The notes beneath the pieces were generated by a model. It was given only the letters and a program-made list of their open reading frames with translations, was not told the origin of the DNA and searched no databases. Positions 2,698 through 31,367 of a stretch of 32,258 nt of DNA are shown one piece after another; position 1 is the stretch's first letter; every line of letters starts with the position of its first letter. Both the position numbers and the translations under genes were made by a program. This DNA is from Candidatus Methylomirabilis sp. (lineage in GTDB: Bacteria > Patescibacteriota > Patescibacteriia > DYHP01): the NCBI GenBank assembly GCA_020724105.1, contig DYHP01000004.1:1-32258 (forward strand), in the 5' to 3' direction.

Positions 2698-3843
2698 TTA
2701 AATCTCTTCTTCGTGTTCCGGTTGTGATTTGACCCACTCATAAAGCTCTGATATCACTTTTTCGGTGTAATTGGCGAGGTGTAAGTCGTCGGTTAAAATT
2801 TTGGCGTCCGAAGCGTTAAAGCCGTATTCGTCTTGGAATCTCTGGCGTTTGGCAGCGGGCAATTCGGGAATTTTGTTTTTGAGCATCTCTCGAAATTCAA
2901 TCAAATTAAGCGGCGGGGTGTCGGGTTCGGGGAAGTAGCGGTAATCGTGCGATTCTTCCTTGATCCGCTGCTCCTCGGTGATGCCTTTTGTTTCATTCCA
3001 ACCGCGCGTTGATTGATACTTTGGCGGTTTGCCTTTTTCAAAAAGTTTTGTTTGGCGGATGATTTCATACTCCAGGGCGCGTTCGACGGCTTTGAAGGAA
3101 TTAAGATTTTTGATTTCGGTCTTCGGGTTAATAGGTCCTATGGGTCCAATAGGACTTATGGGTCCTAAAGGAGATAAAGAGATGTTGGCGTCAACTCGTA
3201 GATGGCCTTTTTCCATATCGGCGGAGGTAATGCCGAGATAGCGCATTATGAGCCGCAATTCCTGAAGAAAAATTTTCGCTTCCTGCGGGGAGCGGATGTC
3301 GGGCTCAGTAACGATTTCTAAAAGCGGGGTTCCTGAACGATTGAAATCAATGTATGTAGAAGCCATGTGCAAAAGCTTGGCCGCGTCTTCTTCAAGGTGG
3401 ACGCGCGCGAGGCGGATTTTAGTAGAAGCAGATTGACGCTGATTGAGTGCGCTGATTAACGCTGAAGAACTCCCTCCCTTACCCTCCCCCTTTTCAAGGG
3501 GGAGGGATGGGGTGGGGGATATTTCAAGATAACCTTGCCGCCCAATGGGTTTATCAAACTGTGAAATTTGGTAACCTTTGGGCAAGTCGGGGTAAAAATA
3601 ATTTTTGCGGTCGAATTTTGAAAAATCCAAAATCCCGCAATTTAAAGATAGTGCGGCGAGCACCGCATATTCTATCGCTCGCTTGTTTGGAACCGGCAAC
3701 ACGCCCGGATGACCCATGCAAACGGGGCAGATGGTGGTGTTGGGGGATTTGTCTTCGCCGGAATTGTCACAGGCGCAAAACATCTTAGATTTTGTTTTGA
3801 GTTGGACATGGATTTCTAATCCTATTATTGGAATATAATTCAT
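2698..3843 (-). CDS. gatB: Asp/Glu-tRNA amidotransferase subunit B, N-terminal catalytic part (ends early at TAA 2700-2698)
   Basis: MNYIPIIGLEIHVQLKTKSKMFCAC..., RVHLEEDAAKL and EIKNLNSFKAVERALEYEIIRQ are GatB hallmarks. It carries two in-frame repeat insertions (3470-3520 and 3129-3168). Confidence 0.85.
   Translation of the reverse strand: MNYIPIIGLEIHVQLKTKSKMFCACDNSGEDKSPNTTICPVCMGHPGVLPVPNKRAIEYAVLAALSLNCGILDFSKFDRKNYFYPDLPKGYQISQFDKPIGRQGYLEISPTPSLPLEKGEGKGGSSSALISALNQRQSASTKIRLARVHLEEDAAKLLHMASTYIDFNRSGTPLLEIVTEPDIRSPQEAKIFLQELRLIMRYLGITSADMEKGHLRVDANISLSPLGPISPIGPIGPINPKTEIKNLNSFKAVERALEYEIIRQTKLFEKGKPPKYQSTRGWNETKGITEEQRIKEESHDYRYFPEPDTPPLNLIEFREMLKNKIPELPAAKRQRFQDEYGFNASDAKILTDDLHLANYTEKVISELYEWVKSQPEHEEEI
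3129..3168. repeat. 9-mer family, in-frame in gatB
   Basis: TAATAGGTCCTATGGGTCCAATAGGACTTATGGGTCCTAA, translated as LGPISPIGPIGPIN just before the conserved EIKNLNSF block. Confidence 0.8.
3470..3520 (-). repeat. Family C hairpin (in-frame in the gatB N-terminal ORF)
   Basis: CTCCCTCCCTTACCCTCCCCCTTTTCAAGGGGGAGGGATGGGGTGGGGGAT. It translates as ISPTPSLPLEKGEGKGGS. Confidence 0.7.
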
Positions 3844-3870: not shown

Positions 3871-4693
3871 CGGCTTTACTTGCTTGTAAATCTCTAAATA
3901 AAATGACCATGCTGATTATAAACAGCGGAACAAAAAGAGCGTTGATGTAGATCGAGCCGAACAATTTGGCGAAATCCGCAAAGTAAGTCACAATTTTGTC
4001 GGCGCTTACAACGAGATATTCTTGAGTCAGTTCAACAAGATTTATAAAAATTTGCGACACCGCCCAGTTGAACATTGACCATAAAATAGTTGGAACAAAA
4101 ATCCTCAGTAATACCGGCCAGAAACGACCCTTGACCAAGACCTTACTTTGAATAAGAGAGTTCTTAATTCCATTCCCACCGCTTCCACCGTTTCCGCCTC
4201 CGAAGCGGAAACGACCACCTTGGAGGTGGAAATCCAATATTGCGAAGTATATGGCAAAAGCGAACCAGACGCTAAAAATTATGCCGGGCACAATCAAGAG
4301 AATGAGACCGGCAATTTGAATAAGGCTGACAATTACGGCAATTAAAAGCACCTCAAACCACAGAGATAAGGCGGCCTTGAACTCGTTCTTAATAGACACG
4401 GAGCTTGCGGAACTTGACACGATTGCGGGAGCGCTAAAGCGACTTAACTGTTTATCAGCAACTCTAACAAGCACTATGGTTAGAAGTATGGTTAAAATGA
4501 GAACACAAAAACCGACGACAATGCTTACCGCCATGCCGGCAATTCCCGCATATTTCAAAGTATTGAGCAATAAGCCGATGGCGCCGATCGGCACGGTAAT
4601 CAAAAAAATGAGCAAACTCAGTTTCAAATAAGTGCGGAGGTTTTGGCTGTATAAAGTCCAAGTGTTGGAAATGAGATTTGAGAGAGTTATCAT
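3866..4693 (-). CDS. Multi-pass membrane protein, unknown function
   Basis: The ORF has several long hydrophobic segments. I prefer the ATG at 4693 (MITLSNLISNTW) because the track start at 4738 is a TTG inside an intergenic hairpin repeat. A Gly-rich insert (GGRFRFGGGNGGSGGNG) is encoded by hairpin repeats. Confidence 0.6.
   Translation of the reverse strand: MITLSNLISNTWTLYSQNLRTYLKLSLLIFLITVPIGAIGLLLNTLKYAGIAGMAVSIVVGFCVLILTILLTIVLVRVADKQLSRFSAPAIVSSSASSVSIKNEFKAALSLWFEVLLIAVIVSLIQIAGLILLIVPGIIFSVWFAFAIYFAILDFHLQGGRFRFGGGNGGSGGNGIKNSLIQSKVLVKGRFWPVLLRIFVPTILWSMFNWAVSQIFINLVELTQEYLVVSADKIVTYFADFAKLFGSIYINALFVPLFIISMVILFRDLQASKAD
4189..4233 (-). repeat. Family E small hairpins, tandem pair in-frame in the membrane protein
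   Basis: CGTTTCCGC-CTCCGAA-GCGGAAACG followed by CCACCTTGGAGGTGGAAAT. The pair encodes part of the Gly-rich insert. Confidence 0.6.
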
Positions 4694-5538: not shown

Positions 5539-5572
5539 ATAGAGAATTATAACACAAAAATAAAAAAAATCC

Positions 5573-5622
5573 CATAAAACCTATAGGACCTTATAAGACC
5601 TTTAGGACTTATAGGACTAATA
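5573..5622. repeat. 9-mer family, dut-tmk spacer
   Basis: CATAAAACC TATAGGACC TTATAAGAC CTTTAGGAC TTATAGGAC TAATA. It overlaps the dut stop. Confidence 0.8.
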
Positions 5623-6143: not shown

Positions 6144-6821
6144 TTAAACGGCGATTTTTATTGACGGGCCCATTGTTGAAGAAATGTAAGCGCCTTTTAT
6201 AAACTCTCCTTTTGAAGAAGACGGCTTTGCTTTTTTGATTGCCGAAATCAAGGCCTGAAAATTGCCGACAAGTTTGCTGTTGTCGTGCGAGATTTTTCCG
6301 AAAACAACGTGCACGTTGCCAGCGGCGTCGTTTTTGAAATCAACCTTGCCCGCCTTTTGCTCGCTGACCATCTTTTTGACGTTGGCGCCGACGGTATCAA
6401 GTTTGGGATTGGGCATCAAACCTTTCGGACCCAAAATCTTCGCGATTTTGGCAAGTTTGGGCATTATTTCCGGCATTGCCACCGCCACGTCAAAATCGCA
6501 TTTTTTTGACAAAGCGATTTGGGCAACCAACTCCTCGCCGCCAACGATATCCGCGCCGGCGTCTTTTGCTTCTTTTTCTTTGTCAGGCGAAACAAAAGCA
6601 ATGACTTTTTTCGTTTTGCCCGAGCCGTAAGGCAGCGCCACGCTGCCGCGGACGCTCTGCTCGCTTTTTGAAACGTCAATGCCCAAACGAAGATGCAATT
6701 CCAAAGTCGCGTCAAATTTAGCGTAAGAAGTTTTTTTTGCCAAATCAACGGCCTCTTCCAAGCTGTACACTTTCTTCGGGTCAATTTGTTTTAATGACTC
6801 TGTATACTTTTTACCATGCAT
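6144..6821 (-). CDS. rplA: 50S ribosomal protein L1
   Basis: 225 aa, typical L1 sequence, located downstream of rplK. Confidence 0.92.
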   Translation of the reverse strand: MHGKKYTESLKQIDPKKVYSLEEAVDLAKKTSYAKFDATLELHLRLGIDVSKSEQSVRGSVALPYGSGKTKKVIAFVSPDKEKEAKDAGADIVGGEELVAQIALSKKCDFDVAVAMPEIMPKLAKIAKILGPKGLMPNPKLDTVGANVKKMVSEQKAGKVDFKNDAAGNVHVVFGKISHDNSKLVGNFQALISAIKKAKPSSSKGEFIKGAYISSTMGPSIKIAV

Positions 6822-6858: not shown

Positions 6859-7284
6859 CTAATCTACAACCTCCAAGCCCATCTGCCTTGCCGTGCCCTC
6901 GATCATCTTCATTGCCGCCTCAACGTTGTCGCAATTGAGGTCGGGCATTTTCTTTTCGGCAATCTCGCGGATTTGGGCGCGGCTAACTTTGCCGATTTTG
7001 TCTTGCGGCGGCTTTTGCGAACCTTTTTCAACGCCGGCCGCCTTTTTTAAAAGTTCGGCCGCCGGAGGGGTCTTTAAAACAAACGAGTAAGTTCTGTCTT
7101 CGTAAACGGCAATCACCACCGGTATAATGTCGTCTCCCAGATTCTTGGTTTTTTCGTTGAATCGGCTGCAGAACTCGGAAATGTTGAGTCCGTGCTGACC
7201 CAGCGCCGGACCGACCGGCGGAGCAGGAGTCGCTTTGCCGGCGGGAATCTGGAGTTTGATATGTGTTTTTACTTTCTTGGGCAT
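6859..7284 (-). CDS. rplK: 50S ribosomal protein L11
   Basis: [35 protein letters not shown]... is canonical L11. Confidence 0.95.
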
Positions 7285-7292
7285 AAATTTCT

Positions 7293-7337
7293 GATAGGAC
7301 TGATAAGTCCAATAAGACCAACGGGTCTCATAGGATT
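7293..7337. repeat. 9-mer family, nusG-rplK spacer
   Basis: GATAGGACTGATAAGTCCAATAAGACCAACGGGTCTCATAGGATT. Confidence 0.75.
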
Positions 7338-8171: not shown

Positions 8172-9389
8172 TCAATAGTCTTTTAGAAACTTCTTGATTT
8201 CCCCCGCCGCCTCTTTGTAATTCTTCACCCACTTAATATTCCGATTTCTTCTAAACCAATTCATTTGGCCTCTTACGTATTTGTGGGTGCGGAACTTGAT
8301 TTTCTGCCCCGCTTCTTCAAGAGTGGTTTTGCCATTCATATAGTCGAGAATTTCTTTGTAACCAATGCCCGATAGGGCGGGGATTTTGGAAATTAGTTTT
8401 ATAGAAATTGGAAATTGGTTATGGAAAGCAGAAACTGAAAATTGGTTTTTTCCATTTTCTATTTTCTGTTTTCTATCACTAATTTCTAATTTCTGAACAG
8501 CTATTTTCTTTTTAAAATAATCAATAAGACATTTCGTTTCCCCCACCAATCCTTGTTTAATCATCTCCTCAACCCTCGCATCTATTCTTTTGTACAACTC
8601 ATGCCTGGGGACTTTAATTCCTATCTGCAAAGTATTAAAGAGCGGTTTTTCGGGTACCCGAAATACATTCTTCTTTTGTAAAGAGGAGTTAATGGGGGTT
8701 ATGTTTTGGCGTTCGGCGGCGTTGTTGTGGCGTTTTTTGGCTTCTACTAAAACTTCCAACGCGCGAATAATGCGCCTCTTATTTTCTAAATCAACGATTT
8801 TAGGCGCCGCCGGGTCTAATTTTTTTAATTGTTTAATTAAAATTTTTAAATCTTTTTTTTCCAATTTTTTTCTAAGCTTCCAGTTTGGAGGAACTTTGGG
8901 AATTGCCAAATTTTCACTTAAGGCGTGGAGATAAAACGCCGTGCCGCCGCAAATGATAGGAATTTTTCCGCGGCAAATTATATCGCGCGCAATTTTGGTT
9001 GCCATTTCTTTGAATTCAGCGACGGAGAAAATCTGGTCGGGTTCAAGAAAACCGATTAAATAATGTTGAATGCCTTTGTATAAACAAGGAGTAGAAGCCA
9101 GTTTTGCGCCATCACTACGCCAATTTACGCCAGCAACCCTCTCATTTTCAGGTACCTGAAAAATATTATGTAAAGGGGAGTTAGCGGGGGTTGTGTTTTG
9201 GCGTTTGGCGGCGTTGTTATGGCGTTTCGTGGCTTCTATGCGCGGGGCGGCTGTGCCGATTTTCATCCCTTTGTAAATTTGCCGCGAGTCGGCGCCGATA
9301 ATTTCGCCGTTAAATTTTTTGGCGATCTTAATAGCGAGTTCAGTCTTGCCGCAACCCGTCGGGCCAGTGATAATAATAATTCTTTTCAT
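8172..9389 (-). CDS. miaA: tRNA dimethylallyltransferase, enlarged by three repeat-derived in-frame inserts
   Basis: MKRIIIITGPTGCGKTELAIKIAKKFNGEIIGADSRQIYKGMKIGTAAP is MiaA-like. At 405 aa it is longer than the roughly 300 aa I recall for typical MiaA; the excess maps to repeats at 9092-9238, 8646-8746 and 8383-8493. Confidence 0.88.
   Translation of the reverse strand: MKRIIIITGPTGCGKTELAIKIAKKFNGEIIGADSRQIYKGMKIGTAAPRIEATKRHNNAAKRQNTTPANSPLHNIFQVPENERVAGVNWRSDGAKLASTPCLYKGIQHYLIGFLEPDQIFSVAEFKEMATKIARDIICRGKIPIICGGTAFYLHALSENLAIPKVPPNWKLRKKLEKKDLKILIKQLKKLDPAAPKIVDLENKRRIIRALEVLVEAKKRHNNAAERQNITPINSSLQKKNVFRVPEKPLFNTLQIGIKVPRHELYKRIDARVEEMIKQGLVGETKCLIDYFKKKIAVQKLEISDRKQKIENGKNQFSVSAFHNQFPISIKLISKIPALSGIGYKEILDYMNGKTTLEEAGQKIKFRTHKYVRGQMNWFRRNRNIKWVKNYKEAAGEIKKFLKDY
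8383..8493 (-). mobile_element. Family B AT-rich palindromic element (in-frame in miaA)
   Basis: 87-bp core at 8402-8488 bounded by TAGAAATT...AATTTCTA. It translates as KLEISDRKQKIENGKNQFSVSAFHNQFPISIKLISKI. Confidence 0.7.
8646..8746 (-). mobile_element. Family A element, diverged right half plus centre (in-frame in miaA)
   Basis: TTTTCGGGTACCCGAAA...GGCGTTGTTGTGGCGTTTTTTGGCTTCTA. It translates as EAKKRHNNAAERQNITPINSSLQKKNVFRVPEKP. Confidence 0.6.
9092..9238 (-). mobile_element. Family A element, copy 3 (in-frame in miaA)
   Basis: Same length (147 bp) and termini, with about 8 substitutions relative to the argS copies. It translates as EATKRHNNAAKRQNTTPANSPLHNIFQVPENERVAGVNWRSDGAKLAST. 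Confidence 0.75.
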
Positions 9390-9394
9390 AAGAT

Positions 9395-9447
9395 GAATAG
9401 GACAAATAAGTCCAAGCAGTCCGATAGGACGAATGGAAGGAATGGGA
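9395..9447. repeat. 9-mer family, miaB-miaA spacer
   Basis: GAATAGGACAAATAAGTCCAAGCAGTCCGATAGGACGAATGGAAGGAATGGGA fills the spacer. Confidence 0.75.
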
Positions 9448-10662
9448 TTATCTATTGATTAAATCGTTTAATATCCGCCAGCGACGTTTTTTCACCTCGC
9501 GCGGAATATCATCTGGGAAATTTTTATAAGCGAACGTTCTGCTTCGCGGCGAGTACATAGAGATATAAGCGATGTTGAAACCGACTTTTTTGCAAAGTTT
9601 TATGGTGTTCTGAAATTGTTTTTCCGTTTCGCCGGGAAAGCCGACGATAATGTCCGTTCCCAACTCAATGCTGGGTTTTGCTTTTCTCACTTTTTTTATG
9701 ATTTTTAAATAATCTTTGGCAGCATATTTCCGATTCATTGTGCGCAAAATTTTATCATCGCCGGATTGAACCGGCAAATGCAGATAATTTACCATTTTTG
9801 GCAATGCCAAAGCTTTTATTGTTTCATCGTTCATATAACGAGGATGAGGGGCGGTGAAGTGAAGTCGTTTTAATCCTTCTAATTGATTCAATTCCCATAA
9901 CAGAGCGGCGAAATGATTTTTAAAAGGATCCTTTTTAGAAAAATTTTCCGGGTCGGGAGCAACCCATTTATTAACAATCTGGCCGAGGAGAATTATTTCT
10001 ATCGCGCCTTCGCGAATCAATTTTTTCGCTTCGCGCAAAATTTCTTTAAGCGGCCTGTTATATTCCCTGCCGCGCGCGTAAGGCACAACGCAATAAGAAC
10101 AAAACTCATTGCATCCAGTTTGAATCGTGAGGTAACGGGAGGTGGCAAAGTCGGATCTGGGCAAGATAGACAAATAGTCGCCTGCGCTGCAAATTTTAGA
10201 AATTGGTTGTTTAGAAATTGGAAATTGGTTATGGAAAATAGAAAGTGGAAATTGGCTTTTGCTATTTTCTATTTTCTGTTTTCTATTACTAATTTCTATT
10301 TTCCATAAAGCTAATTTCTGCGCCAAAGATGGCAATTCATCTATTCTGAAAAAAAGGTCCGCGCCGAAAAGTTTTTTGCGGATTTTCCCATCTTTATCGC
10401 GGCCGACCAGACAGCCGGTAACGGCGATAATTGGTTTAGAGGCCAGCGTTTTTGTAGGGTTGTTATGGCGTCTTGTGGCTTCTACTAACCCGAATACCCT
10501 GTCTTCGGCCGTTTGGCGAACCGAGCAGGAATTTATAACGATAAAATCGGCCGAATTTTTGTCTTTGGCTTTTTTCATCCCCATTTTTTCCAAAACTGCG
10601 GCAATTCTCTCGGAATCATTTTTATTCATCTGACAGCCGTATGTAACTATGCAGTATTTCAT
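9448..10662 (-). CDS. miaB: MiaB-family radical-SAM tRNA methylthiotransferase
   Basis: MKYCIVTYGCQMN start and the CNEFCSYC radical-SAM cluster motif. I prefer the start at 10662 (or 10668), because the track start at 10740 lies within an intergenic hairpin repeat. It carries the in-frame repeat at 10193-10303. Confidence 0.82.
   Translation of the reverse strand: MKYCIVTYGCQMNKNDSERIAAVLEKMGMKKAKDKNSADFIVINSCSVRQTAEDRVFGLVEATRRHNNPTKTLASKPIIAVTGCLVGRDKDGKIRKKLFGADLFFRIDELPSLAQKLALWKIEISNRKQKIENSKSQFPLSIFHNQFPISKQPISKICSAGDYLSILPRSDFATSRYLTIQTGCNEFCSYCVVPYARGREYNRPLKEILREAKKLIREGAIEIILLGQIVNKWVAPDPENFSKKDPFKNHFAALLWELNQLEGLKRLHFTAPHPRYMNDETIKALALPKMVNYLHLPVQSGDDKILRTMNRKYAAKDYLKIIKKVRKAKPSIELGTDIIVGFPGETEKQFQNTIKLCKKVGFNIAYISMYSPRSRTFAYKNFPDDIPREVKKRRWRILNDLINR
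10193..10303 (-). mobile_element. Family B element (in-frame in miaB)
   Basis: 87-bp core at 10212-10298 with the same termini, roughly 85-90% identical by eye to the miaA copy, in the same orientation and frame (KIEISNRKQKIENSKSQFPLSIFHNQFPISKQPISKI). Confidence 0.7.
10457..10484 (-). mobile_element. Family A right-end fragment (in-frame in miaB)
   Basis: GGGTTGTTATGGCGTCTTGTGGCTTCTA matches the element's right terminus. It translates as EATRRHNNP. Confidence 0.45.
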
Positions 10663-11958: not shown

Positions 11959-11998
11959 AATAGGACCAAATAAGTCCGATAGTCCCAATTGGACTTAT
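11959..11998. repeat. 9-mer family at the hup stop
   Basis: AATAGGACCAAATAAGTCCGATAGTCCCAATTGGACTTAT. Confidence 0.75.
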
Positions 11999-14576: not shown

Positions 14577-16571
14577 CTATACTCGTTGAAGCGGTTTTAT
14601 CCCCAACAACTTCATCCCTTGTTCAAACGTTTCGGCTATCTTTTTTATAAATAAAATGCGTTGCGTTCTGACGGATTCCGGGGCGTTAAGGACCGGCGTT
14701 GTTTCATAAAAATCATTAAATTTTTTTGCCAAATCATAAAGGTAAAGCGCCAGGTCTGAAGGGTCGAGATTTTTAGCGGACAACTCTATTGTTTCCTCAT
14801 ATTTGGCAAGATGCATTATCAAATTATTTATAGAAGCCATCTTTACGCCATCACCACGCCAATTTACGCCAGCAACCCTCTCATTTTCAGGTACCTGAAA
14901 AATATTATGTAAGGGGGAGTTGGCGGGGGTTGTGTTTTGGCGTTTGGCGGCGTTGTTATGGCGTTTTTTGGCTTCTACGAGAATGCTCTGTGTTCTGGCA
15001 TAGGCATATTCCAAATAAACGCCTGTTCTGCCCAACAAACTGACCGATTCCTCCGGCCTAAAAAGCAATTCCGATTTTGGGTCAACCTGCAAAATATAAA
15101 ATTTCAGCGCCGCCAAAGCCAAATTTTTAATAGAAGCCATCTTTACGCCATCACCACGCCAATTTACGCCAGCAACCCTCTCATTTTCAGGTACCTGAAA
15201 AATATTATGTAAGGGGGAGTTGGCGGGGGTTGTGTTTTGGCGTTTGGCGGCGTTGTTATGGCGTTTTTTGGCTTCTATAATTAGCATTTTCTCTAATTGT
15301 TCAATCAAATCATCGGCATCCACCCTTGCGCCTTCCCGCGATTTTAATTTTCCTTCGGGCAAAAGAACGAGGCCGTAATTTAAATGGAATAATTTTTCCA
15401 CAAAAGGCGCGCCAACAACTTCAAAAATTTTAAACAATTGCTTGAAATAATAATCCTGTTCGGAAGCGACAATATAAATCATTTTGTCAAATTTAAAATC
15501 CTTCGCTCTCTGAAACGCAAGTTCAATGTCATTTGTGGCGTAAACCGATGTGCCGTCGGCGCGCAACACGACCTTGTTTGCCAAACCGAACTTCGCCAAA
15601 TTCGCGATAATATTGCCTTTTTCGTCTTTTTTCAAAAATTTATTTTTAAAATATTCCGCCGCTCTTTTCTTCGCTTTTTTATAAATTTGACTTTCAAAAT
15701 AAATTTTGTCGAACTTTATGCCCAAATTTTTAAATGTTTCGTCAAACCCCCGAAGCGCCCAGTTGTTCATTTTTTTCCACAACGCGACAGTCGGCTTGTC
15801 GCCCGCCTCCCACTTTTTTAACAATTCGTACGCCTCATTTAGAAGCGACGGATTTTCTTTGGCTTTTTCACCGAATAAAACATAGTACCGCCCGACGAAC
15901 GCGTCGCCTTTTTCGGTTTTAGATTTAAGATTTAAAATTTCAGATTTGAATTTTTCTTCGGATTTCGGACCTGTTCCGTAGCGTCGCGAAGCGTCTGCTT
16001 CGGGGTTTCGAATCTCGGATTTCCGCTGCGAAGCAGTGGCTGGCGTTTCGCCATAACCAAATTTCTGGTAAGCAAGCATTGATTTGGCAATGTGGATCCC
16101 GCGGTCATTGACCAACGAGGTGCGGATAACTTTCGCGCCCCGCAATTCCAATATATTGCTTAACGCCTCGCCCAAAAGACCGTTCCGGACATGACCCAGA
16201 TGAAGCGGTTTGTTGCTGTTGGGAGAAACGTATTCTATTACCACCTTTTTAGATTTAAGATTTAAGTTGTCAGATTTAAGTTGTTTTTTTGTTAAAATTT
16301 CTCCGGCGATCTTTTCTTTATCCAAAATAAAATTTAAATAAGGACCCGCGATTCTGATTTCTTTTATATAAGGGTTCTTGGCGATGAAATCTTCCAATTT
16401 ATTTTTGAGTTCCTCCACCTTAGTTGTAAGTTGTAAACCGTGGCACGGCAGCGCCAAATCGCCCATTTCGGGTTTGGGCGGGTACTCAAAAACATCAGCC
16501 GTTATTGGCGATGGCAAGTGCTTATTAATCTCCTCTGCCAGATTTTGTTTCAGGGTCTTGAGAGAGAACAT
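14577..16571 (-). CDS. argS: Arginine--tRNA ligase carrying four repeat-derived in-frame inserts
   Basis: HLGHVRNG (HIGH-like) motif and a DALR-type C-terminus (YLEYAYARTQSIL ... LYLYDLAKKFNDFYE). 664 aa; roughly 150 aa map to repeats at 14831-14977, 15131-15277, 15917-16041 and 16248-16285. Confidence 0.9.
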   Translation of the reverse strand: MFSLKTLKQNLAEEINKHLPSPITADVFEYPPKPEMGDLALPCHGLQLTTKVEELKNKLEDFIAKNPYIKEIRIAGPYLNFILDKEKIAGEILTKKQLKSDNLNLKSKKVVIEYVSPNSNKPLHLGHVRNGLLGEALSNILELRGAKVIRTSLVNDRGIHIAKSMLAYQKFGYGETPATASQRKSEIRNPEADASRRYGTGPKSEEKFKSEILNLKSKTEKGDAFVGRYYVLFGEKAKENPSLLNEAYELLKKWEAGDKPTVALWKKMNNWALRGFDETFKNLGIKFDKIYFESQIYKKAKKRAAEYFKNKFLKKDEKGNIIANLAKFGLANKVVLRADGTSVYATNDIELAFQRAKDFKFDKMIYIVASEQDYYFKQLFKIFEVVGAPFVEKLFHLNYGLVLLPEGKLKSREGARVDADDLIEQLEKMLIIEAKKRHNNAAKRQNTTPANSPLHNIFQVPENERVAGVNWRGDGVKMASIKNLALAALKFYILQVDPKSELLFRPEESVSLLGRTGVYLEYAYARTQSILVEAKKRHNNAAKRQNTTPANSPLHNIFQVPENERVAGVNWRGDGVKMASINNLIMHLAKYEETIELSAKNLDPSDLALYLYDLAKKFNDFYETTPVLNAPESVRTQRILFIKKIAETFEQGMKLLGIKPLQRV
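14831..14977 (-). mobile_element. Family A 147-bp palindromic element, copy 1 (in-frame in argS)
   Basis: Termini TAGAAGCC...GGCTTCTA, central palindrome TTTTCAGGTACCTGAAAA, and arms that are imperfect inverted copies rich in ACGCC/GGCGT words. It translates as EAKKRHNNAAKRQNTTPANSPLHNIFQVPENERVAGVNWRGDGVKMASI. Confidence 0.75.
15131..15277 (-). mobile_element. Family A element, copy 2 (in-frame in argS)
   Basis: 147/147 nt identical to 14831-14977, exactly 300 bp away, in the same orientation and reading frame. Confidence 0.75.
15917..15950. repeat. AGATTTA heptamer array, in-frame in argS
   Basis: TTTTAGATTTAAGATTTAAAATTTCAGATTTGAA, translated as FKSEILNLKSKT. Confidence 0.7.
16248..16285. 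repeat. AGATTTAAG array, in-frame in argS
   Basis: TTTAGATTTAAGATTTAAGTTGTCAGATTTAAGTTG, translated as QLKSDNLNLKSKK. Confidence 0.7.
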
Positions 16572-16907: not shown

Positions 16908-18434
16908 ATGGAAATCTTAATCGTCTTAATACTGGCCGCGGCCTGCGTCGGCGGTTTTTTGGGTTATTTAATCAGAAGCGAGGTGGCTAAAAGAAGGGCG
17001 GCGAGCGCCGAGGCGCGCGCGGGAAAAATCATAAGCGACGCCAAAACTCGAGCCCAGGAATTTTTAATAAGAACAAAAGAAAAAGGGCTGCAAATCATTG
17101 AGGAAGCCAAGAAAGAAGAAACCGAGAGAAGAAAAACATTGCTTGAACACGAAAAAAGATTGGAAAAAAGAGAATCGCTCTTTGACCAAAAACTTTTGGA
17201 ATCCCAGGAAAAGCAGCAAAAACTGCAGGACAAACTGCGCGAAATCGAGGAGATAAAATTAAAAATAAACCAATTAAAAGACCGAATATTGGGGGAATTG
17301 CAAAGGATTTCATCGCTTAGCGTGGAGGAGGCCAAGCAAGAAATTTTGAAACGCGTGGAAGACGACGTGAAAGACGAAGCGCTTTCAAGAATCAGGAAAC
17401 TTGAACAGACCGCGGCGGAAGAACTTGAAAACAAAACAAAAGAACTGATTGGCGATATCTTGCAAAGAGTGGCGATTTCGCACGCTGTGGAAATCACCAC
17501 CACCAGCGTTAATTTGCCCAACGACGAAATGAAAGGAAGAATTATCGGCAAAGAAGGCAGAAACATCAGGACCATAGAACAATTAACCGGCACCGAACTT
17601 ATTATTGACGAAACGCCGAACACAATAACCGTTTCAAGTTTCTCCCCCATCCGCCGCCAAATCGCCAAACGGGCGCTCGACAAACTCATTGCCGACGGCA
17701 GAATCCAGCCGGCGCGCATTGAAGAAGCGATTGACATCTCCAAAAAAGAATTGGCGATAGAAATTAAAAAAGCCGGCGAAGACACTTTGTATTCTTTGGG
17801 GCTTGAAATCGCGGGATACGACCCAAAGCTCATCCAAATCTTAGGCAGATTGAAATTCAGGACAAGTTACGGACAAAATGTTTTGCAGCACTCAATCGAA
17901 GTGGCGTACTTGTCCGCGCTTTTGGCCCAAGAATTGGGGCTCAACGCTTCATTGGCGAAAAAAGGCGGTTTGTTCCATGACGTCGGCAAGGCGGTTGACC
18001 AGGAAGTGCAGGGAACTCATCCTGAAATCGGCTATAATATTTTGAAAAAATTCGGCCTTCCCGAAGACGTCGCTTATTGCGCCTTGGGACATCATGAAGA
18101 CAAGCCAAAAACCATTGAAGCGATATTGGTGAAAACCGCCGATGCCATATCGGGCGCGAGGCCGGGCGCGCGCAAAGAAACGCTTGAACAATACATCCAA
18201 AGGTTGGAAGATTTGGAAAAAGTCGCCACCGGTTTTTCGGGCGTGGAAAAAGCCTACGCCATCCAAGCCGGCCGAGAAATCAGAGTTTTCGTTAAACCCG
18301 ACCAAATCGACGATTTGTCGGCGTTTAATTTGGCTCGCGACATTGCCAAACAAATAGAAACGGAATTAAGATACCCGGGCGAAATCAAGGTGACGGTCAT
18401 CAGGGAAACCCGCGCCATTGAATACGCGAGATAA
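16908..18434 (+). CDS. rny: Ribonuclease Y
   Basis: N-terminal TM helix, coiled-coil, KH domain (GRIIGKEGRNIRTIE) and HD domain (HSIEVA...LFHDVGKA...GHH). Confidence 0.93.
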   Translation: MEILIVLILAAACVGGFLGYLIRSEVAKRRAASAEARAGKIISDAKTRAQEFLIRTKEKGLQIIEEAKKEETERRKTLLEHEKRLEKRESLFDQKLLESQEKQQKLQDKLREIEEIKLKINQLKDRILGELQRISSLSVEEAKQEILKRVEDDVKDEALSRIRKLEQTAAEELENKTKELIGDILQRVAISHAVEITTTSVNLPNDEMKGRIIGKEGRNIRTIEQLTGTELIIDETPNTITVSSFSPIRRQIAKRALDKLIADGRIQPARIEEAIDISKKELAIEIKKAGEDTLYSLGLEIAGYDPKLIQILGRLKFRTSYGQNVLQHSIEVAYLSALLAQELGLNASLAKKGGLFHDVGKAVDQEVQGTHPEIGYNILKKFGLPEDVAYCALGHHEDKPKTIEAILVKTADAISGARPGARKETLEQYIQRLEDLEKVATGFSGVEKAYAIQAGREIRVFVKPDQIDDLSAFNLARDIAKQIETELRYPGEIKVTVIRETRAIEYAR

Positions 18435-18484
18435 TAAGACCTTTAGGACCTATAGGACCCATTAGTCCGATTGGACTCATAAGA
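18434..18484. repeat. 9-mer family, rny-ymdB spacer
   Basis: ATAAGACCTTTAGGACCTATAGGACCCATTAGTCCGATTGGACTCATAAG. Confidence 0.8.
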
Positions 18485-18492
18485 TTTAATTT

Positions 18493-19326
18493 ATGACCAT
18501 ATTATTCTTCGGCGACATAATGGGCAAAATCGGCCGCAAGGCCGTAGAAAAAATAACGCCCAAGTGGAAAAAGAAATACAAACCCGATGTTATCATCGCC
18601 AACGGCGAAAACCTGGCGCACGGCATTGGCATTACCGAAAAAACGGCGCGCCAAGTTTTTGACGCGGGCGTTGATTTTTTAACCGGCGGCAACCACACTT
18701 TTGATAAAACAAGCGACCTCTATATATGGAACGACGAAGTTTTTGAAAAAAAATTGCTTCGTCCGGCGAACTTAACCCCCCTAATCCCACCCCTTATTTT
18801 AAGGGGGGGCAAGGAGGGATTACCGGGCGAAGGGGTGAAGATAATTGATGTTAAAGGAAATAAATTAATGCTTATCAATCTAATGGGTAGAGTGTTTTTC
18901 AAAGAAGAATACCTGGACCCGTTTAAAATGATGAATGAAATCTTGAAAGACAAGCCCAAAGACATTAAATGCGTTATTTTGGATTTTCACGCCGAAGCGA
19001 CATCGGAAAAAAACGCTTTGGGCTGGTATTTGGACGGGGGAATTTCCGCGATAATAGGCACGCACACGCACATCCCGACAGCCGACGCGAAAATCCTGCC
19101 GCAAGGCGCCGCTTACATCACCGACGTCGGCATGGTCGGCGCCAGAGATTCGGTGCTCGGCGAGAATAAAGATGCCATTATTAATGCTTTTTTGACTGAC
19201 AGCGGATTTAAACATGACATTCCGGAAAAAGGCGAAGCGATAATCGGCGCGGTTTTATTGAAAATCGACGAAAAAACCGGCAAGGCGAAAAAAATTGAGA
19301 GATTGGAAGAGACAATTAAAATTTAA
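18493..19326 (+). CDS. ymdB: YmdB-family metallophosphoesterase (TIGR00282-like)
   Basis: MTILFFGDIMGKIGRKAV...ANGENLAHGIGIT...GGNHTFDK...DFHAEATSEK...GTHTH, with conserved rny-ymdB synteny. Contains a hairpin-derived insert at 18774-18822. Confidence 0.85.
   Translation: MTILFFGDIMGKIGRKAVEKITPKWKKKYKPDVIIANGENLAHGIGITEKTARQVFDAGVDFLTGGNHTFDKTSDLYIWNDEVFEKKLLRPANLTPLIPPLILRGGKEGLPGEGVKIIDVKGNKLMLINLMGRVFFKEEYLDPFKMMNEILKDKPKDIKCVILDFHAEATSEKNALGWYLDGGISAIIGTHTHIPTADAKILPQGAAYITDVGMVGARDSVLGENKDAIINAFLTDSGFKHDIPEKGEAIIGAVLLKIDEKTGKAKKIERLEETIKI
18774..18822 (+). repeat. Family C hairpin (in-frame in ymdB)
   Basis: AACCCCCCTAATCCCACCCCTTATTTTAAGGGGGGGCAAGGAGGGATT. It translates as LTPLIPPLILRGGKEGL. 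Confidence 0.7.
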
Positions 19327-19327
19327 C

Positions 19328-19356
19328 TGGACTTATAAGTCCTATAGGTCCTATAA
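19328..19356. repeat. 9-mer family after the ymdB stop
   Basis: TGGACTTATAAGTCCTATAGGTCCTATAA, just before the terminator hairpin. Confidence 0.75.
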
Positions 19357-19361
19357 AATAA

Positions 19362-19390
19362 ATACCCCCGATAAAATCGGGGGTATTTTA
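19362..19390. terminator. Intrinsic terminator (bidirectional) after ymdB and the small minus-strand ORF
   Basis: ATACCCCCGAT-AAA-ATCGGGGGTAT is a perfect 11-bp stem, followed by TTTA. The left flank is A/T-rich. Confidence 0.75.
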
Positions 19391-22409: not shown

Positions 22410-22440
22410 TGGTGGGAGGGCAAGGTTGAGCTATGGGCGG
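22410..22440 (-). repeat. Duplicated 16-nt 5' end of tRNA-Lys fused to a CCCTCCCACCA motif
   Basis: 22425-22440 is identical to 22385-22400. The minus-strand read is CCGCCCATAGCTCAAC-cttg-CCCTCCCACCA. The same architecture occurs at 12796-12846. Confidence 0.7.
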
Positions 22441-22450
22441 GCAAACAAAA

Positions 22451-22527
22451 ATCCTATAAGTCCTATAGGACCTATAAGTCCTATGTGTCCTATAAGTCCT
22501 ATAAGTCCTATAGGACTTATAGGCCCG
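22451..22527. repeat. Tandem array of about 8 units of the 9-mer TCCTATAAG/TCCTATAGG
   Basis: TCCTATAAG TCCTATAGG ACCTATAAG TCCTATGTG TCCTATAAG TCCTATAAG TCCTATAGG ACTTATAGG. It contains the perfect 24-bp palindrome CTATAAGTCCTATAGGACTTATAG and overlaps the rpoC stop codon. Confidence 0.9.
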
Positions 22528-25500
22528 ATTTATAACCGGTTCCGGTCGGAATCAATCTGCCGATGATGACATTTTCCTTCAAACCTTCAAGTTTGTCAAG
22601 GCGGCCGGTTGTCGCGGCGTTAATCAAAACGCGGGCGGTTTCCTGGAACGAAGCAGCTGATAAAAAGCTCATTGACGAGAGCGAAACGCGACTGATGCCC
22701 ATAAACAAATCCTTGGATGTCGCCTTTTTACCGCCGCTTTTCGCCATTTTCTCGTTCTCTTCTTCATAATACCAGCGCTCGACAATCTCGCCGGGCAACA
22801 TTTCAGTATCTCCCGGATCCTCAATTAACACGCGGGAAAACATTTGTTTTATGATTACCTCGATATGCTTGTCGTTTAATCTCTGACCTTGTGAACAATA
22901 AATTTTTTGGATGTTTTGGAGAATATAGCGTTGCGTCGCTTCCTTGCTTTTGAAATGATAGAGTTCTTGCAAATCCAAACTGCCTTCGGTCAAGGGATCG
23001 CCGGCCGTAACATATTCGCCATCCTTGACATGCAAGACATAGCCGGCCGGAATGATAAATTCCTTGACGATTTTCCCCTGCCAAGTCACTTTGACGATTT
23101 TGTCGCTTAGGGAGACCGCGCCCGATTTTTTGGCAACGACAAACTTACCATCTTCGCGCTCGATTAAAACCTCACCTTCCTTGATTTTCCCGCCGTCTTT
23201 TGCTCTGACTTTGTCTTTTGCGCCGAAGCGGTACGAAAATTCTTCGCTTCCTTCTTTTGACACTTCAACGATTCTCTGGGTTAAAACCGTACCCTTGTGA
23301 GCCTTGTCAATGTCTTTCACCTTGACTTCGCCGTCCGTGTCCGCGGTTATGGCGCGGTTTTTCGGCGGACGCGCTTCAAAAAGTTCTTCAACGCGAGGCA
23401 AACCTTGGGTAATGTCGAGCCCGGCCACGCCGCCGGTATGAAACGTTCTCATGGTAAGCTGAGTGCCTGGCTCGCCGATTGATTGGGCGGCGATAATGCC
23501 GACTGGCGCGCCTTCTTTGACAATCTGGTTATAAGCCAAATCATGGCCGTAGCATTTGGCGCAAACGCCTTTTTGGGATTTACAGCTTAAAACGCTCCTG
23601 ACTTTAGATTCTTTAATCTTGTGAGCGGCGAGTTCGCGGGCGATTTTGTGAGTAATCAACTCCCCCTTTTTCAACAATATTTTATTATTAACATCTTTCA
23701 GGTCTTGGGCTAAGAATCTGCCGACGAGCCTCTCAAAAAAACTCATGCCCAAATCGTTACTTTCTTCGGCGGTAATGAATATGCCGTCAGACGTCCCGCA
23801 ATCGTCCATTCTGATAATTATATCCTGTGAAACATCAACCAAACGCCTGGTTAAATAACCGGATGAAGCAGTGCGGACTGCGGTATCCGCCAAGCCTTTT
23901 CTCGTGCCGTGAGTTGAAATGAAATATTCCAAAACATCCAACCCTTCCTTAAAACTACGCTTGACCGGCAACTCAATAACGTTGCCGGCGGGATTAACCA
24001 CCAAACCCTTCATGCCCATCATCTGGGTGAGCTGCCCCCAGCTGCCGCGCGCCCCGGAATCAATCATGCTGTAGACCGAACCGCCTTTGTCCAATTTTTC
24101 CTTGCAGAGCTGGGTTATTCTGTCTTTGGTGGCGTCCCAAATGCCGATGATTTTGCTGTACTTTTCCTTAAAAGTCAAAAGCCCTTCCTCGTAAAGCGAC
24201 TCAATCCCGGCCACTTGTTTGTTGGCTTCTGTTATTAATTCGTTCTTTTCGGGCAAATCGGGAACCTCTTCCAAACTCCAGGTGTAACCAGATTTGGTGA
24301 TGTAGTAAAAGCCCGTTTCCTTGATGTCGTCCAAAATCTTAGCCGTCGCTTCGGGACCGTAAAATTCAAGACACATCCTGATGATTTCGCCTAACTTTTT
24401 GACATTTAGCGCCTCATTTTTGAAAGGTATTTCGGCCGGCAATCTTTGCCAGAAAATAACGCGGCCGACCGTGGTGTCCGTAATTTTCCCCCTGAATCTC
24501 ACTTTTATCGGTTCGTGCAAGGTAATTTTGCCAAGTTCATAAACCATTAGCGCCTCTTTCTCGTCGGCAAATGATTTGGGCTTGTCGCGATTTTTGCCCC
24601 ATGCTCCCAAAGTCAAAAAGTAACAGCCCCAGGCAATGTCTTTGTTTGGCGTGGCAATAGGCTGGCCCGTGCCCGGCTTTAACAAATTGCGGACGGAAAG
24701 CATGCGTTCGGCGGCCTCTTTATTGGCTTCCTCGGTGAGAGGAACGTGAACAGCCATCTGATCGCCGTCAAAGTCCGCGTTATAAGCAACGCAGACCATC
24801 GGATGGATTTGAATCGCTTTGCCTTCCACAAGCACCGGCTGAAAGGCCTGGATGCCCAAACGATGGAGCGTCGGGGCGCGATTGAGCATCACGTAGGCGT
24901 TCTTGATAATGTCTTCCAAAATATCCCAAACCTCCGGTCTGTCGCTTTCAATGAAACGATTGGCGCTTTTAATGTTGTGGACGAAGTCGGCGAGGATTAA
25001 TTTACTGATAAGAAAAGGCCTGAAAAGCTCAAGCGCCATTCTTTTCGGCAGACCGCATTGGTGCATTTTGAGACTAGGATTGACGACAATGACGCTGCGA
25101 CCGGAGTAATCAACCCGTTTGCCCAAAAGATTTTGGCGGAAACGGCCCTGCTTGCCTTTCAAGATGTCGGCGAGCGACCTTAATTCGTGTTTCGCTCCCG
25201 CGCCTGCCGCTCCTTTGGTTTGGCGGGCGCTGTTGTCAATTAAAGCGTCAACCGCCTCCTGCATCATTCTTCTTTCGTTTCGGCAAATAACCTCTGGCGC
25301 GTTCAACTCCGTCAATCTTTTCAAACGATTGTTTCTGTTTATAATGCGGCGGTATAAATCGTTTAAATCAGAAGTGGCGTAACGTCCGCCGTCAAGCGCC
25401 ACCATGGGCCTTAAATCCGGCGGAATGACGGGCACATTCTTCAAAATCATCCATTCGGGCCTGATGTTTTGTTTTTTTAAACTCTTTAAAAGTTTCAGGC

Positions 25501-30296: not shown

Positions 30297-31310
30297 TTAT
30301 TTTCTCAACCCAACCAATCTTTTCACCTCTCCAAGCGTTTTCGAAGCGATTTTTTGCGCCTTTTTTGAACCCTGTGAATAAGCCGCCGAAATTTTCTCCG
30401 AATTTTTGAGCAACGCCTCCTTCTTTTTTCTAAAATCGGAAAAGTAATCAGTGATTCTTTTTGCCAAGACCTCTTTCAGTTCGGCATATTTTATCGCGCC
30501 CGCGCGATAATCATCAAGAAATTTTTTTACATCCTTTGCGTCTCCAAAATTTTCCAAAAGCAAAAATAAATTTGAAACCCCGGGACTCATTACTGGTTGT
30601 TGGTTGTTAGTCGTTAGTTTTTGATTTTTGGCGGGACCGACGTCCGTCACCGCCTTTTTTATTTTTCTTTCTATCTCCGCGGGGGAATCCGACAAAAATA
30701 TGCAGTGGTCCGCGCCCAAACTTTTGCTCATCTTTTTATCCGGTTTGAGCAAACTCATTATCTTCGGCGTCTGCGTCAAAATCGCTTTGGGTATTTTAAA
30801 ATATTCTCCAAATCTATTATTGAAAAATTTTGCCGCGTCGCTTGCAAGTTCTACATGTTGAACTTGATCTTTGCCCACAGGAACCGCCTCGCCGCGATAA
30901 ATTAAAATATCCGCCGCCTGCAAAACCGGGTAAGTGAACAAACCCGCATTGACATTTTGCGACTGCCTTTGCGACTTGTCTTTATACTGCGTCATCCGCT
31001 CCAAAAAACTTATCGGCGTAATGCAATTGAAAATCCAGGCGAGTTCCGTAACTTGCGGCACTTGCGATTGGATGAATAAAATGGACTTTCCCGGGTCAAG
31101 CCCCAGGGCTAAAAGTTCGGCGCTGATTTCTAAGATTTGATTGTATTTTTCTTTGGGCTCAAAATTTTCCGTCAGCGAATGGTAATCGGCGATAAAGAAA
31201 AAGCATTCGTTATTTTTGTTTCTTTGAAGTTCAAGCCAATTCTTGACGGCCCCTAAATAATTACCTAAGTGCAAAGGGCCTGTGGGCTGGATGCCGGATA
31301 TAATACGCAT
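30297..31310 (-). CDS. trpS: Tryptophan--tRNA ligase
   Basis: MRIISGIQPTGPLHLGNYLGA (HIGH-type) and KMSKS motifs. Short low-complexity insert TTNNQQP at 30591-30630. Confidence 0.92.
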   Translation of the reverse strand: MRIISGIQPTGPLHLGNYLGAVKNWLELQRNKNNECFFFIADYHSLTENFEPKEKYNQILEISAELLALGLDPGKSILFIQSQVPQVTELAWIFNCITPISFLERMTQYKDKSQRQSQNVNAGLFTYPVLQAADILIYRGEAVPVGKDQVQHVELASDAAKFFNNRFGEYFKIPKAILTQTPKIMSLLKPDKKMSKSLGADHCIFLSDSPAEIERKIKKAVTDVGPAKNQKLTTNNQQPVMSPGVSNLFLLLENFGDAKDVKKFLDDYRAGAIKYAELKEVLAKRITDYFSDFRKKKEALLKNSEKISAAYSQGSKKAQKIASKTLGEVKRLVGLRK

Positions 31311-31319
31311 AAAATTAAG

Positions 31320-31364
31320 ATAAGTCCTATAAGTCTCCTATAAGTCCTATAGGTCTTATAGGTT
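31320..31364. repeat. 9-mer family, rnj-trpS spacer
   Basis: ATAAGTCCTATAAGTCTCCTATAAGTCCTATAGGTCTTATAGGTT. Confidence 0.8.
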
Positions 31365-31367
31365 AAA

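Follow-up and report, generated by a model that had tools for sequence, protein, structure and literature searches.

The DNA considered here, called the window, is one contig of 32,258 nucleotides (nt) and the sole 32-kb sample of its source genome. On its minus strand lies argS, encoding an arginyl-tRNA synthetase (ArgS) of 664 amino acids (aa), and this gene contains two copies of a palindromic element of 147 base pairs (bp). The gene is an open reading frame (ORF) whose homologs carry PF03485, PF00750, and PF05746, and whose product matches the arginyl-tRNA synthetase structures 1bs2 and 2zue. The features of the locus are as follows.

14577..16571, minus strand: argS, arginyl-tRNA synthetase, 664 aa
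15131..15277, minus strand: element at argS site 1 (ArgS residues 433-481), with the catalytic core on one side and the anticodon-binding domain's first helix on the other
14831..14977, minus strand: element at argS site 2 (ArgS residues 533-581), in the DALR domain after YAYARTQSIL
14884..14901 (also 15184-15201 and 9145-9162), strandless: central 18-bp palindrome TTTTCAGGTACCTGAAAA, a center specific to the window genome
14831..14871, strandless: left arm, TAGAAGCCA plus three ACGCCA boxes, mirrored by a right arm at 14938-14977 with TGGCGT boxes followed by TGGCTTCTA

The two argS copies are equal at 147 of 147 bases, and their starts lie 300 bp apart. Both a repeat finder and BLAST recover the pair, with identity running 1 nt further on the left and 0 nt further on the right. 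An exact repeat of 147 nt within 32 kb cannot have arisen by chance. One of the six reading frames of the element is free of stop codons, and it is the frame that argS uses; the encoded 49-aa peptide is EAKKRHNNAAKRQNTTPANSPLHNIFQVPENERVAGVNWRGDGVKMAS(I). In ArgS, the site 1 copy precedes KNLALAALKFYILQ.

An earlier note on this DNA had described two identical 147-bp copies in the argS frame that encode the same 49 aa (EAKKRHNN...GVKMAS(I)), one placed before the LKFYILQ helix and the other after YAYARTQSIL. Direct comparison and translation bear out the first point, and ArgS alignment bears out the second. The perfect central 18-bp palindrome reported there reappears as an opposite-strand self-match. 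The terminal inverted repeats do exist, but their perfect length is 9 bp rather than 8 bp. We conclude that the observation is real, that its reading as a palindromic repeat resembling MITEs (miniature transposable elements with inverted repeats) or Rickettsia palindromic elements (RPEs) and read through in frame is essentially right, and that the family is denser in the window than first noticed. The family is multi-copy, is absent from the 93 distant ArgS proteins compared, occupies sites that are filled in some genomes and empty in others, and has one open frame. Both argS stretches are, in our assessment, likely copies of a lineage-specific, non-autonomous foldback repeat (48-165 bp inside genes, 147 bp here) that behaves like selfish DNA in a small Patescibacteria-like clade.

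Anatomy of the Element

The terminal inverted repeat (TAGAAGCCA / TGGCTTCTA) is perfect over 9 bp. When left arms are aligned to reverse-complemented right arms, a common plan emerges, TAGAAGCCA-N4-5-ACGCCAT-N4-ACGCCA-N4-ACGCCA, that is, four GCCA-type boxes per arm at spacings of 11, 11, and 10 bp, or roughly one turn of the helix. Single-stranded, the element forms a long, interrupted hairpin (-64.7 kcal/mol for the plus strand and -54.7 kcal/mol in the mRNA sense; z of about -6), and 0 of 200 shuffled sequences are as stable. In an arm alignment of five copies, the helices formed by the boxes show 93-100% pairing with essentially no variation, and the spacers are only 15-50% paired. No compensatory double changes occur among these five copies. 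The lone compensatory event is a matched change at position 9 of the terminal inverted repeat, and it marks a subfamily with TAGAAGCCG...CGGCTTCTA termini that is present in miaA of one related contig (L010) and at the second gatB site of another (L002).

The boxes fall in three codon phases (TGG CGT; GAT GGC GTA; GCT GGC GTA), and they are equally kept in an intergenic copy. Because the boxes span three codon phases and persist outside genes, and because the spacers are unpaired, the conserved entity is a DNA motif array, neither a peptide nor a co-varying RNA helix. A selected RNA or DNA hairpin was rejected, given that the five copies display no compensatory change and pair only in the invariant boxes. 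Judging from sequence, the phased boxes are probably candidate binding sites for a trans-acting protein, either a transposase or a recombinase. Mimicry of tRNA 3' ends by the GCCA boxes was considered and is unsupported: the tRNAs of the window end in ...CACCA or have no encoded CCA, unlike ACGCCA.

The center of the element is variable and genome specific. Copies in L002 have a short CTCC..GGAG hairpin, and copies in L003 have a nested GC-rich hairpin that stands alone in the gatB gene of the window. The miaA copy of L003, at 81 nt, consists of arms with no center.

Further Copies in the Window and in Relatives

The window holds five copies in three genes (argS, miaA, and miaB), and all share one orientation and one frame relative to the host gene. 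The copies outside argS, and their hosts, are listed here.

8172..9389, minus strand: miaA, tRNA dimethylallyltransferase of 405 aa versus the usual ~300 aa (Pfam IPPT, 4.4e-61), with two copies
9092..9238, minus strand: full copy at miaA site 1, after GTAAP, identical to the argS copies at 139/147 positions (94.6%)
8647..8746, minus strand: shortened copy at miaA site 2 (nhmmer E = 1.2e-13), with right arm and center, replacing 14 native codons
9448..10740, minus strand: miaB-like radical-SAM methylthiotransferase gene (orthologs with PF00919 and PF04055), host of the mini-copy
10437..10484, minus strand: 48-nt mini-copy in the miaB-like gene, with both termini retained and the interior deleted

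The shortened miaA copy has the center variant TTTCGGGTACCCGAAA. The earlier note had proposed that the insertion idea would fall if the element had no other copies, and further copies exist both in the window and in relatives.

A pattern scan of metagenomes with the terminal motif yielded three contigs. A syntenic series was fetched via the closest ArgS and MiaA relatives and comprises L003, which is the same as L008 (JGI); L009, an independently made ENA assembly of the same organism; L004; L005; L006/L007; and L010. The program nhmmer detects the family in L001, L002, L003/L008/L009, and L010 and finds no match in L004-L007. In L003, copies reside in argS, miaA, and miaB and in the spacer between rny and ymdB, where the element (6206-6540) is 335 nt long and has stops in frame. 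L002 has two copies in gatB, L010 has copies in miaA and miaB, and L001 has one at the contig end (1015-1055), following an AT-rich stretch. Site by site, miaA site 1 is filled in L003 (81 nt) and in L010 (120 nt, of the TAGAAGCCG-terminus subfamily), and L004 has an apparent decayed trace there, below nhmmer detection. The miaB site holds a 165-nt copy in L003 and native sequence, of the same length as the mini-copy, in L004/L005.

Some of these copies have features of their own. The miaA site 1 copy of L010 (8692-8811) has, along with its TAGAAGCCG...CGGCTTCTA termini, CGCCG boxes and two nested small hairpins, and the miaB site of L010 (7280-7341) retains an arm remnant, EVIKRHHNAKKRQ. In the L002 gatB copy at 226-285, a 30-nt terminal segment (TAGAAGCCATTTCCACGCCATCACT...) is triplicated in tandem and in frame (...GVEMASTKNNGVEMASTKSDGMEMAST). 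Thus, the arms can expand by tandem duplication.

Beyond these contigs, the family has a narrow distribution. Two exact-pattern scans found it absent from GTDB species genomes, and searches of viral contigs, plasmids, and phages likewise gave no copy. Among named organisms, the host proteins have their nearest relatives in Patescibacteria (such as Uhrbacteria and Magasanikbacteria), with ~40% identity in ArgS and MiaA. When 1.84 billion representative proteins were searched with a profile, the sole matches were WD40 repeats (VAWSPDGTKLAS versus GVNWRSDGVKMAS), which we judged to be due to chance. A word-index search of 5.8 billion proteins with the 49-aa peptide gave no hits, although ArgS of the window is among those proteins, so this negative carries no weight for so short a query. 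Literature searches for in-frame MITEs or palindromic elements in the candidate phyla radiation (CPR)/Patescibacteria did not find any.

All intragenic copies found are in genes for enzymes that act on tRNA (argS, miaA, and miaB, and gatB in L002). The large neighboring genes rpoB, rpoC, lon, and rny, and a class Ib aminoacyl-tRNA synthetase gene of the window (30297..31310), have no copy. The tRNA-enzyme association may reflect just local spread among neighboring genes, and we set aside enrichment in tRNA enzymes as a sign of function, since the host genes are neighbors and the two effects are confounded.

What the Copies Gain and Replace

Comparison with 93 distant ArgS sequences defines both argS sites as lineage-specific gains. 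The spacer between DDL and KFYILQ measures 36-41 aa in the distant set versus 68 aa in the window, and that between SIL and KYEE, at 58 aa in the window, compares with a distant-set median of 29 aa. At site 1, no distant ArgS is longer. At site 2, a few have long inserts, and those inspected are unrelated in sequence. Alignments to the yeast and Pyrococcus structures stop before the elements and restart after them, and never run across.

The insertions are not purely additive. The earlier note held that each copy adds 49 aa; 49 aa are indeed encoded, but ~18-20 native residues are missing at each site, such that the net gains are ~31 and ~29 aa, or about 30 aa per copy. Site 2 has lost its native linker, which spans ~20 residues and reads, for example, KAKIKTAGKIDFGRLGEKWE in P0007. 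At site 1, the E-A-K-K-R-H of the element stands where the native E-x-K-K-R-H (E-I-K-K-R-H...) lies, and the native DNA of L004 and L006 there matches the element end at 14/18 nt. E433 and R437, both conserved to at least 90% across 98 ArgS sequences, are now encoded by the element. Replacement also occurs elsewhere: the miaB mini-copy swaps out an equal number of native codons, and codon alignment of miaA site 2, filled in the window, reveals native CLAGYKFSEFGKKG in L003/L004/L005. In gatB, site 1 holds a copy in L002 and none in the window.

These data dispose of the idea that the stretches are ancestral ArgS sequence, for instance a lineage-specific domain duplicated within the protein. 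The first six residues do resemble the native site 1 motif, and the native DNA of L004 and L006 matches the element end. Nonetheless, copies of this DNA also lie in miaA, miaB, and gatB and between genes; the element is absent from the 93 distant ArgS proteins, where by the earlier note a homologous peptide would have spoken for an ancestral domain, and from the close relatives L004-L007; and the profile search of proteins gave the chance WD40 matches only. We regard this reading as refuted, with next to no probability left to it.

Reading Frame and Protein Model

Each of the seven intragenic lengths observed (48, 81, 114, 120, 135, 147, and 165 nt) is a multiple of 3, and every such copy is stop-free in the same frame. 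Such a pattern would be expected if survival were limited to copies that can be read in frame, and removal of the segment would not call for it. By this token the copies appear to be transcribed and translated with their host genes.

The notion that the element is an intervening sequence eliminated before the mature protein forms, either as an intron-like hairpin or as an intein, is correspondingly very improbable. Its paired termini could bring the flanks together, and CPR bacteria are known for insertions in rRNA genes. However, an Rfam scan of the window returned only three tRNAs at gathering score, and no group I or II intron or other family. Inteins have at least ~130 aa, an N-terminal Cys/Ser, a C-terminal His-Asn, and a downstream nucleophile, whereas inspection of the translated element reveals 49 aa that start with E and end in ...MAS, followed by I-K or I-N. 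Seven lengths that are all multiples of 3 and stop-free would be needless if removal preceded translation, and excision would forfeit the ~18-20 replaced native residues, including the conserved E433 and R437.

An AlphaFold model of ArgS, built with 98 homologs, has a pTM of 0.87 and a core pLDDT > 90. Modeled helices at 419-445 and 474-494 enter the ends of element 1, and those at 517-544 and 578-589 enter element 2. Modeled pLDDT is < 50 at 443-448, 452-475, and 560-569. We infer from the model that the first ~12 and last ~8 residues of the element would prolong the flanking helices, and that the middle would form a poorly ordered excursion. A helix-loop-helix excursion, as proposed for RPEs, fits the model. 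The host sites themselves are variable helix-loop-helix linkers of housekeeping enzymes.

Could the insert serve its hosts? The proposal would be that the 49-aa peptide (basic helix EAKKRHNNAAKRQ, loop, GVNWRxDGV) or the RNA hairpin adds a function to tRNA enzymes, for example tRNA contacts or translational regulation. All four host genes (argS, miaA, miaB, and gatB) act on tRNA; the sites have been kept over long divergence (MiaA of the window and of L003 are 68% identical by MAFFT and 55% by BLASTP); and the element supplies E433 and R437 at site 1. However, the conserved residues are exactly the box-encoded ones, and the boxes lie in three codon phases and are equally conserved in an intergenic copy. 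Centers are freely replaced or deleted, with copies ranging over 16-55 aa. Local spread suffices to explain the choice of hosts, as these genes adjoin on the chromosome, and a fifth tRNA enzyme, the class Ib aminoacyl-tRNA synthetase noted above, has no copy. Moreover, the same loops carry unrelated repeats in other genomes, and the inserts are modeled with low confidence. We consider such exaptation improbable.

Age and Homogenization

The identity of the two argS copies invites the conclusion that they arrived recently, and the relatives argue otherwise. Specifically, the window and L003 both have copies at identical codon positions in argS site 2, miaA site 1, and the miaB site; the L003 flanks are only ~65-82% identical to those of the window (~73% nt identity for argS). 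At argS site 2, L003 has a 114-nt variant at the same codons. The miaA site 1 and miaB sites are filled in L010 too. As these sites are shared by the window and L003, and in miaA and miaB also by L010, the insertions predate the divergence of these genomes.

Copies within one genome nevertheless resemble each other more than they resemble their positional counterparts. Paralogous copies within the window are 94.6-100% identical, and the L003 argS site 2 and miaB copies are 93% identical to each other. The orthologous comparison, argS site 2 of the window versus that of L003, gives 79% identity and a different center. This pattern suggests concerted evolution, by ectopic gene conversion or by repeated re-copying into filled sites. 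Because L003 shares argS site 2, and because paralogs are closer than orthologs, the 100% identity of the argS pair signifies recent copying or conversion, not first insertion. Of the earlier note's two suggestions, a very recent insertion or gene conversion, the second is the better fit, the C-terminal site being shared with L003.

Site 1 offers a possible view of the process. In L003, this site has only the opening 42 nt of the element, of which 39 are identical to the window, with 13 element codons substituting for 13 native ones and the native DLKKRSEI coming next. In the window, the site has the full element and no native DLKKRSEI stretch. Our proposal is that an ancestor had an element-derived patch at argS site 1, a state still present in L003; in the window lineage, the full element would then have been copied recently from site 2, 300 bp away, into site 1, seeded by the patch, and this copying would have overwritten ~7 native codons. 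Copying from site 2 to site 1 would account for the missing native codons as well as for the perfect identity, and it is the most likely origin of the site 1 copy to judge by these alignments. A less simple but possible alternative is that a full ancestral copy occupied site 1 and then underwent two independent in-frame deletions.

An assembly artifact, producing either the second copy or the perfect identity from a repeat-rich metagenome bin, is scarcely credible. The contig does come from a metagenome, and three near-identical 147-bp repeats within 6.5 kb are hard for short-read assemblers. However, each copy is flanked by sequence that lines up collinearly with orthologous ArgS, and the reading frame is unbroken. 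L003, in two independent assemblies (L008 from JGI and L009 from ENA), has element sequence at both sites. A mis-join would be expected to leave chimeric flanks, and none were seen.

Transposition or Recombination

The best-supported wording for the family is a selfish foldback repeat maintained by conversion. How it came to be inserted is less clear-cut. Under one scenario, it is a classical MITE of the IS630/Tc1-mariner type, mobilized in trans, that inserts at and duplicates TA, and the argS copies are two independent recent insertions. The scenario has attractions: all copies begin and end with TA; the terminal inverted repeat is perfect over 9 bp; the element is small and multi-copy, has no coding capacity of its own, and displays filled/empty site polymorphism; and 5'-TA-3' termini are common in bacterial MITEs (PMC2229807, Table 1). 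However, the terminal TA belongs to the inverted repeat and alone is uninformative. The sole comparable empty site, in gatB of the window, lacks a TA at the matching position, and the sequence around it is diverged. The TA..TA target duplication that the earlier note had put forward as an inference is thus unconfirmed at any comparable empty site. A possible 9-bp duplication encoding A-P-C at miaA site 1 is seen in L004 only, and weakly in the window. Beyond this, native codons are replaced and not merely added to, the L003 site 1 state is an equal-length patch and not a transposition product, argS site 2 is common to L003 and hence not recent, and no transposase appears in the ORFs and loci scanned. 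We judge the scenario unlikely.

Several points also weigh against our preferred description of a foldback repeat with selfish-like behavior. The flanks of all copies and two filled/empty pairs reveal no consistent target-site duplication. No transposase or autonomous parent was found by Pfam in 10 window ORFs, unannotated ones included, or among precomputed Pfam calls for ~115 kb of related loci, a result with which the earlier note's statement that the window has no transposase is consistent. All known copies lie in one syntenic region, from gatB to argS, so the activity may be local recombination, not transposition. Frame conservation is the basis on which translation of the copies is assumed. 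The exact identity of the short repeats is that of a metagenome assembly. Finally, four or five genomes carry the family, which gives the covariation and concerted-evolution tests low power.

A large role for recombination is suggested by the patch of equal length, by the native codons that were replaced, by homogenization within genomes, and by the clustering of known copies in one syntenic region. We speculate, as a doubtful possibility, that the family spreads and persists with no transposase at all. Ectopic conversion would be seeded by microhomology between the arm encoding the K/R-rich helix (GAAGCCAAAAAACGCCAT...) and similar native sequence, and it would progressively overwrite linkers of tRNA enzymes, from an equal-length patch (argS site 1 of L003) to a full element (the window). 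If so, the element would be a recombination-driven "coding parasite" of protein loops instead of a MITE, and a function tied to its GCCA/UGGC box arrays would be possible.

Neighboring Repeats

The element is one of several repeats that populate this region. A second, unrelated coding palindrome, family D7, is 127 nt long, with copies that are 86% identical, and occurs in the window at 8383-8509 (miaA) and 10193-10319 (miaB) and in L004 at 4483-4579 (miaB, another site). It is read in frame as ...KLEISDRKQKIENGKNQF...FPIS..., has one open frame, and forms a hairpin of -51 kcal/mol in the antisense versus -27 kcal/mol in the mRNA sense. At the miaA and miaB positions of D7, L003 has a different tandem repeat (GVAHESARKNQDERTLSCANPHDFK).

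Repeat arrays of 9-nt periodicity (TATAGGACC / TATAAGTCC, with variants) occupy most intergenic spacers, abutting start and stop codons.

1936-1989, 5558-5621, 7278-7331, 9389-9440, 11963-11998, 18427-18489, 19310-19372, 22440-22529, and 31333-31377: 9-nt-period arrays
3133-3168: 9-nt-period array in frame in gatB (GPISPIGPIGPINP)

In relatives, such arrays also lie inside ArgS (P0002/L006, GPIGPIGPMGPI, at site 2) and MiaA (P0137). The gatB gene of the window is itself split into two overlapping minus-strand frames, 2225-2737 (a 170-aa GatB_Yqey domain) and 2698-3843 (a 381-aa N-terminal part), which could represent a frameshift, an error in sequencing, or a genuine split. At the position of the L002 element copy, the window gatB has a GC-rich hairpin repeat (SPTPSLPLEKGEGKGG) and an NQRQSAS-type repeat.

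ArgS has a third lineage-specific insertion, of ~38 aa, at residues ~178-220 (SQRKSEIRNPEADASRRYGTGPKSEEKFKSEILNLKSK; window ~15900-16050), modeled as helical with a pLDDT of ~62-67. The AT-rich repeat family D3 (15917-15958 / 16247-16288) falls in this insertion and near residue 100. A small GC-rich hairpin repeat encoding PHPSPLGRGRVREG stands alone at 3436-3524 and 18772-18827 in the window and also occurs at 2537-2589, 9912-9958, and 11546-11646 in L003. In the argS and miaB copies of L003, the PHPSPLGRGRVREG repeat is nested exactly at the palindrome tip, an arrangement that suggests that hairpin tips are preferred insertion targets.

Independent assemblies of one organism differ in MiaB, which has 606 aa in L008 (2546-4366) and 546 aa in L009 (330-1970). 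The gap is probably one of in-frame tandem-repeat copy number, through population variation or assembly collapse. Lastly, a gene for a PF05635 23S-rRNA-intervening-sequence protein lies between the bactofilin and DAGK genes in L003/L008/L009 (L008 12530-12910; L003 1148-1528) and is absent there in the window.

The lineage has a reduced genome and probably depends on a host. D7 and the other in-frame repeats in the same loops suggest that small, drift-prone genomes repeatedly tolerate selfish DNA in essential enzymes, with surface linkers continually remodeled as a result. The series from native sequence to equal-length patch, full element, internally deleted mini-copy, and nested element provides an unusually clear view of gain, homogenization, and erosion. 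There is a practical side as well: in CPR genomes, such repeats are a hazard that can inflate protein lengths or make them variable and that can cause repeat-induced problems of assembly and annotation.

Comparison with Known Systems

Among bacterial repeats, the element fits a loose definition of a MITE, being small and multi-copy, with terminal inverted repeats and no internal transposase gene; a target-site duplication and a parent insertion sequence are unproven. Intragenic bacterial MITEs with ORFs (ERIC/IRU, RU-3, YPAL, and the 107-bp form of Correia; Delihas 2007, 2008; PMC2229807) are alike in their 100-200 bp, terminal inverted repeats, TA termini, stem-loop, and occasional in-frame fusions. 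They are mainly intergenic, and target-site duplications have been demonstrated for several families, whereas the copies described here are mostly intragenic and their duplication is unproven.

REP/BIME sequences are hairpin-forming, high-copy, non-autonomous repeats mobilized by RAYT (TnpA-REP), and their hairpins are targeted by further insertions (PMC1525189, PMC3733652). In this they recall the L003 copies, whose tip holds a nested GC-rich hairpin. However, REPs are 20-40 bp, extragenic, and tagged with GTAG/CGTC, whereas the element is 147 bp, mostly intragenic, and ends in TAGAAGCCA. We rejected membership in REP/BIME on these grounds; the examined loci also have no RAYT gene or Y1 transposase domain.

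PARCELs (palindromic amphipathic repeat coding elements) of Mollicutes are described as palindromic translated DNA forming intragenic tandem repeats in proteins that confer surface phenotypes (PMC2996958). Both are palindromic and translated, the latter presumed for our family, which differs in consisting of single interspersed insertions in enzymes. In Drosophila, the FB foldback elements have long inverted arms composed of short tandem subrepeats, and they are eukaryotic, kilobase sized, and non-coding. The likeness to them is architectural only: subterminal repeat arrays of ~10-11 bp, inverted on two arms, around a variable center.

The closest parallel is to the RPEs. Families RPE-1 to RPE-10 were reportedly described by Ogata et al. 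in 2000 and 2002, and related coding palindromes are said to exist in Wolbachia. RPEs are 100-150-bp palindromic repeats with terminal inverted repeats that are either intergenic or fused in frame in Rickettsia genes; an RPE insert in PheT, an aminoacyl-tRNA synthetase subunit, is common to all Rickettsia, and one RPE-host product is translated and active (PMC2229807, PMC1779305, PMC10969869). The resemblance is extensive. Both are interspersed palindromes of 100-150 bp that form a long stem-loop, have terminal inverted repeats, and in some cases end in TA. Both reside in intergenic DNA and in frame in housekeeping genes, where one open frame yields a conserved peptide of 35-50 aa. In both, some insertions are ancient and shared by orthologs, others reflect lineage-specific proliferation, and there is no known cognate transposase. 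Both inhabit organisms with reduced genomes that depend on a host, or in our case probably do. In functional terms, the element is an RPE-like coding palindrome: it has a hairpin and terminal inverted repeats, it inserts in frame, and it has non-coding copies.

The two nonetheless differ. The host phylum is Patescibacteria/CPR-like here and Alphaproteobacteria there, and the likeness so far is one of features. The arms of our family are phased arrays of ACGCCA boxes. Its copies replace native residues, whereas RPEs only add them, and within-genome homogenization is strong (93-100% between paralogs). So far, its known copies come from a single syntenic region of four or five genomes from metagenomes. 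Because the nearest named host relatives are Patescibacteria, with ~40% identity in ArgS and MiaA, common descent with the RPE families of Rickettsiales is unlikely. The element thus apparently represents a new family of coding palindromes, undescribed in this phylum and analogous to RPEs by independent origin. Until now, coding palindromes have been viewed as peculiar to Rickettsia and Wolbachia; that an independent family exists in Patescibacteria-like bacteria points to convergence.

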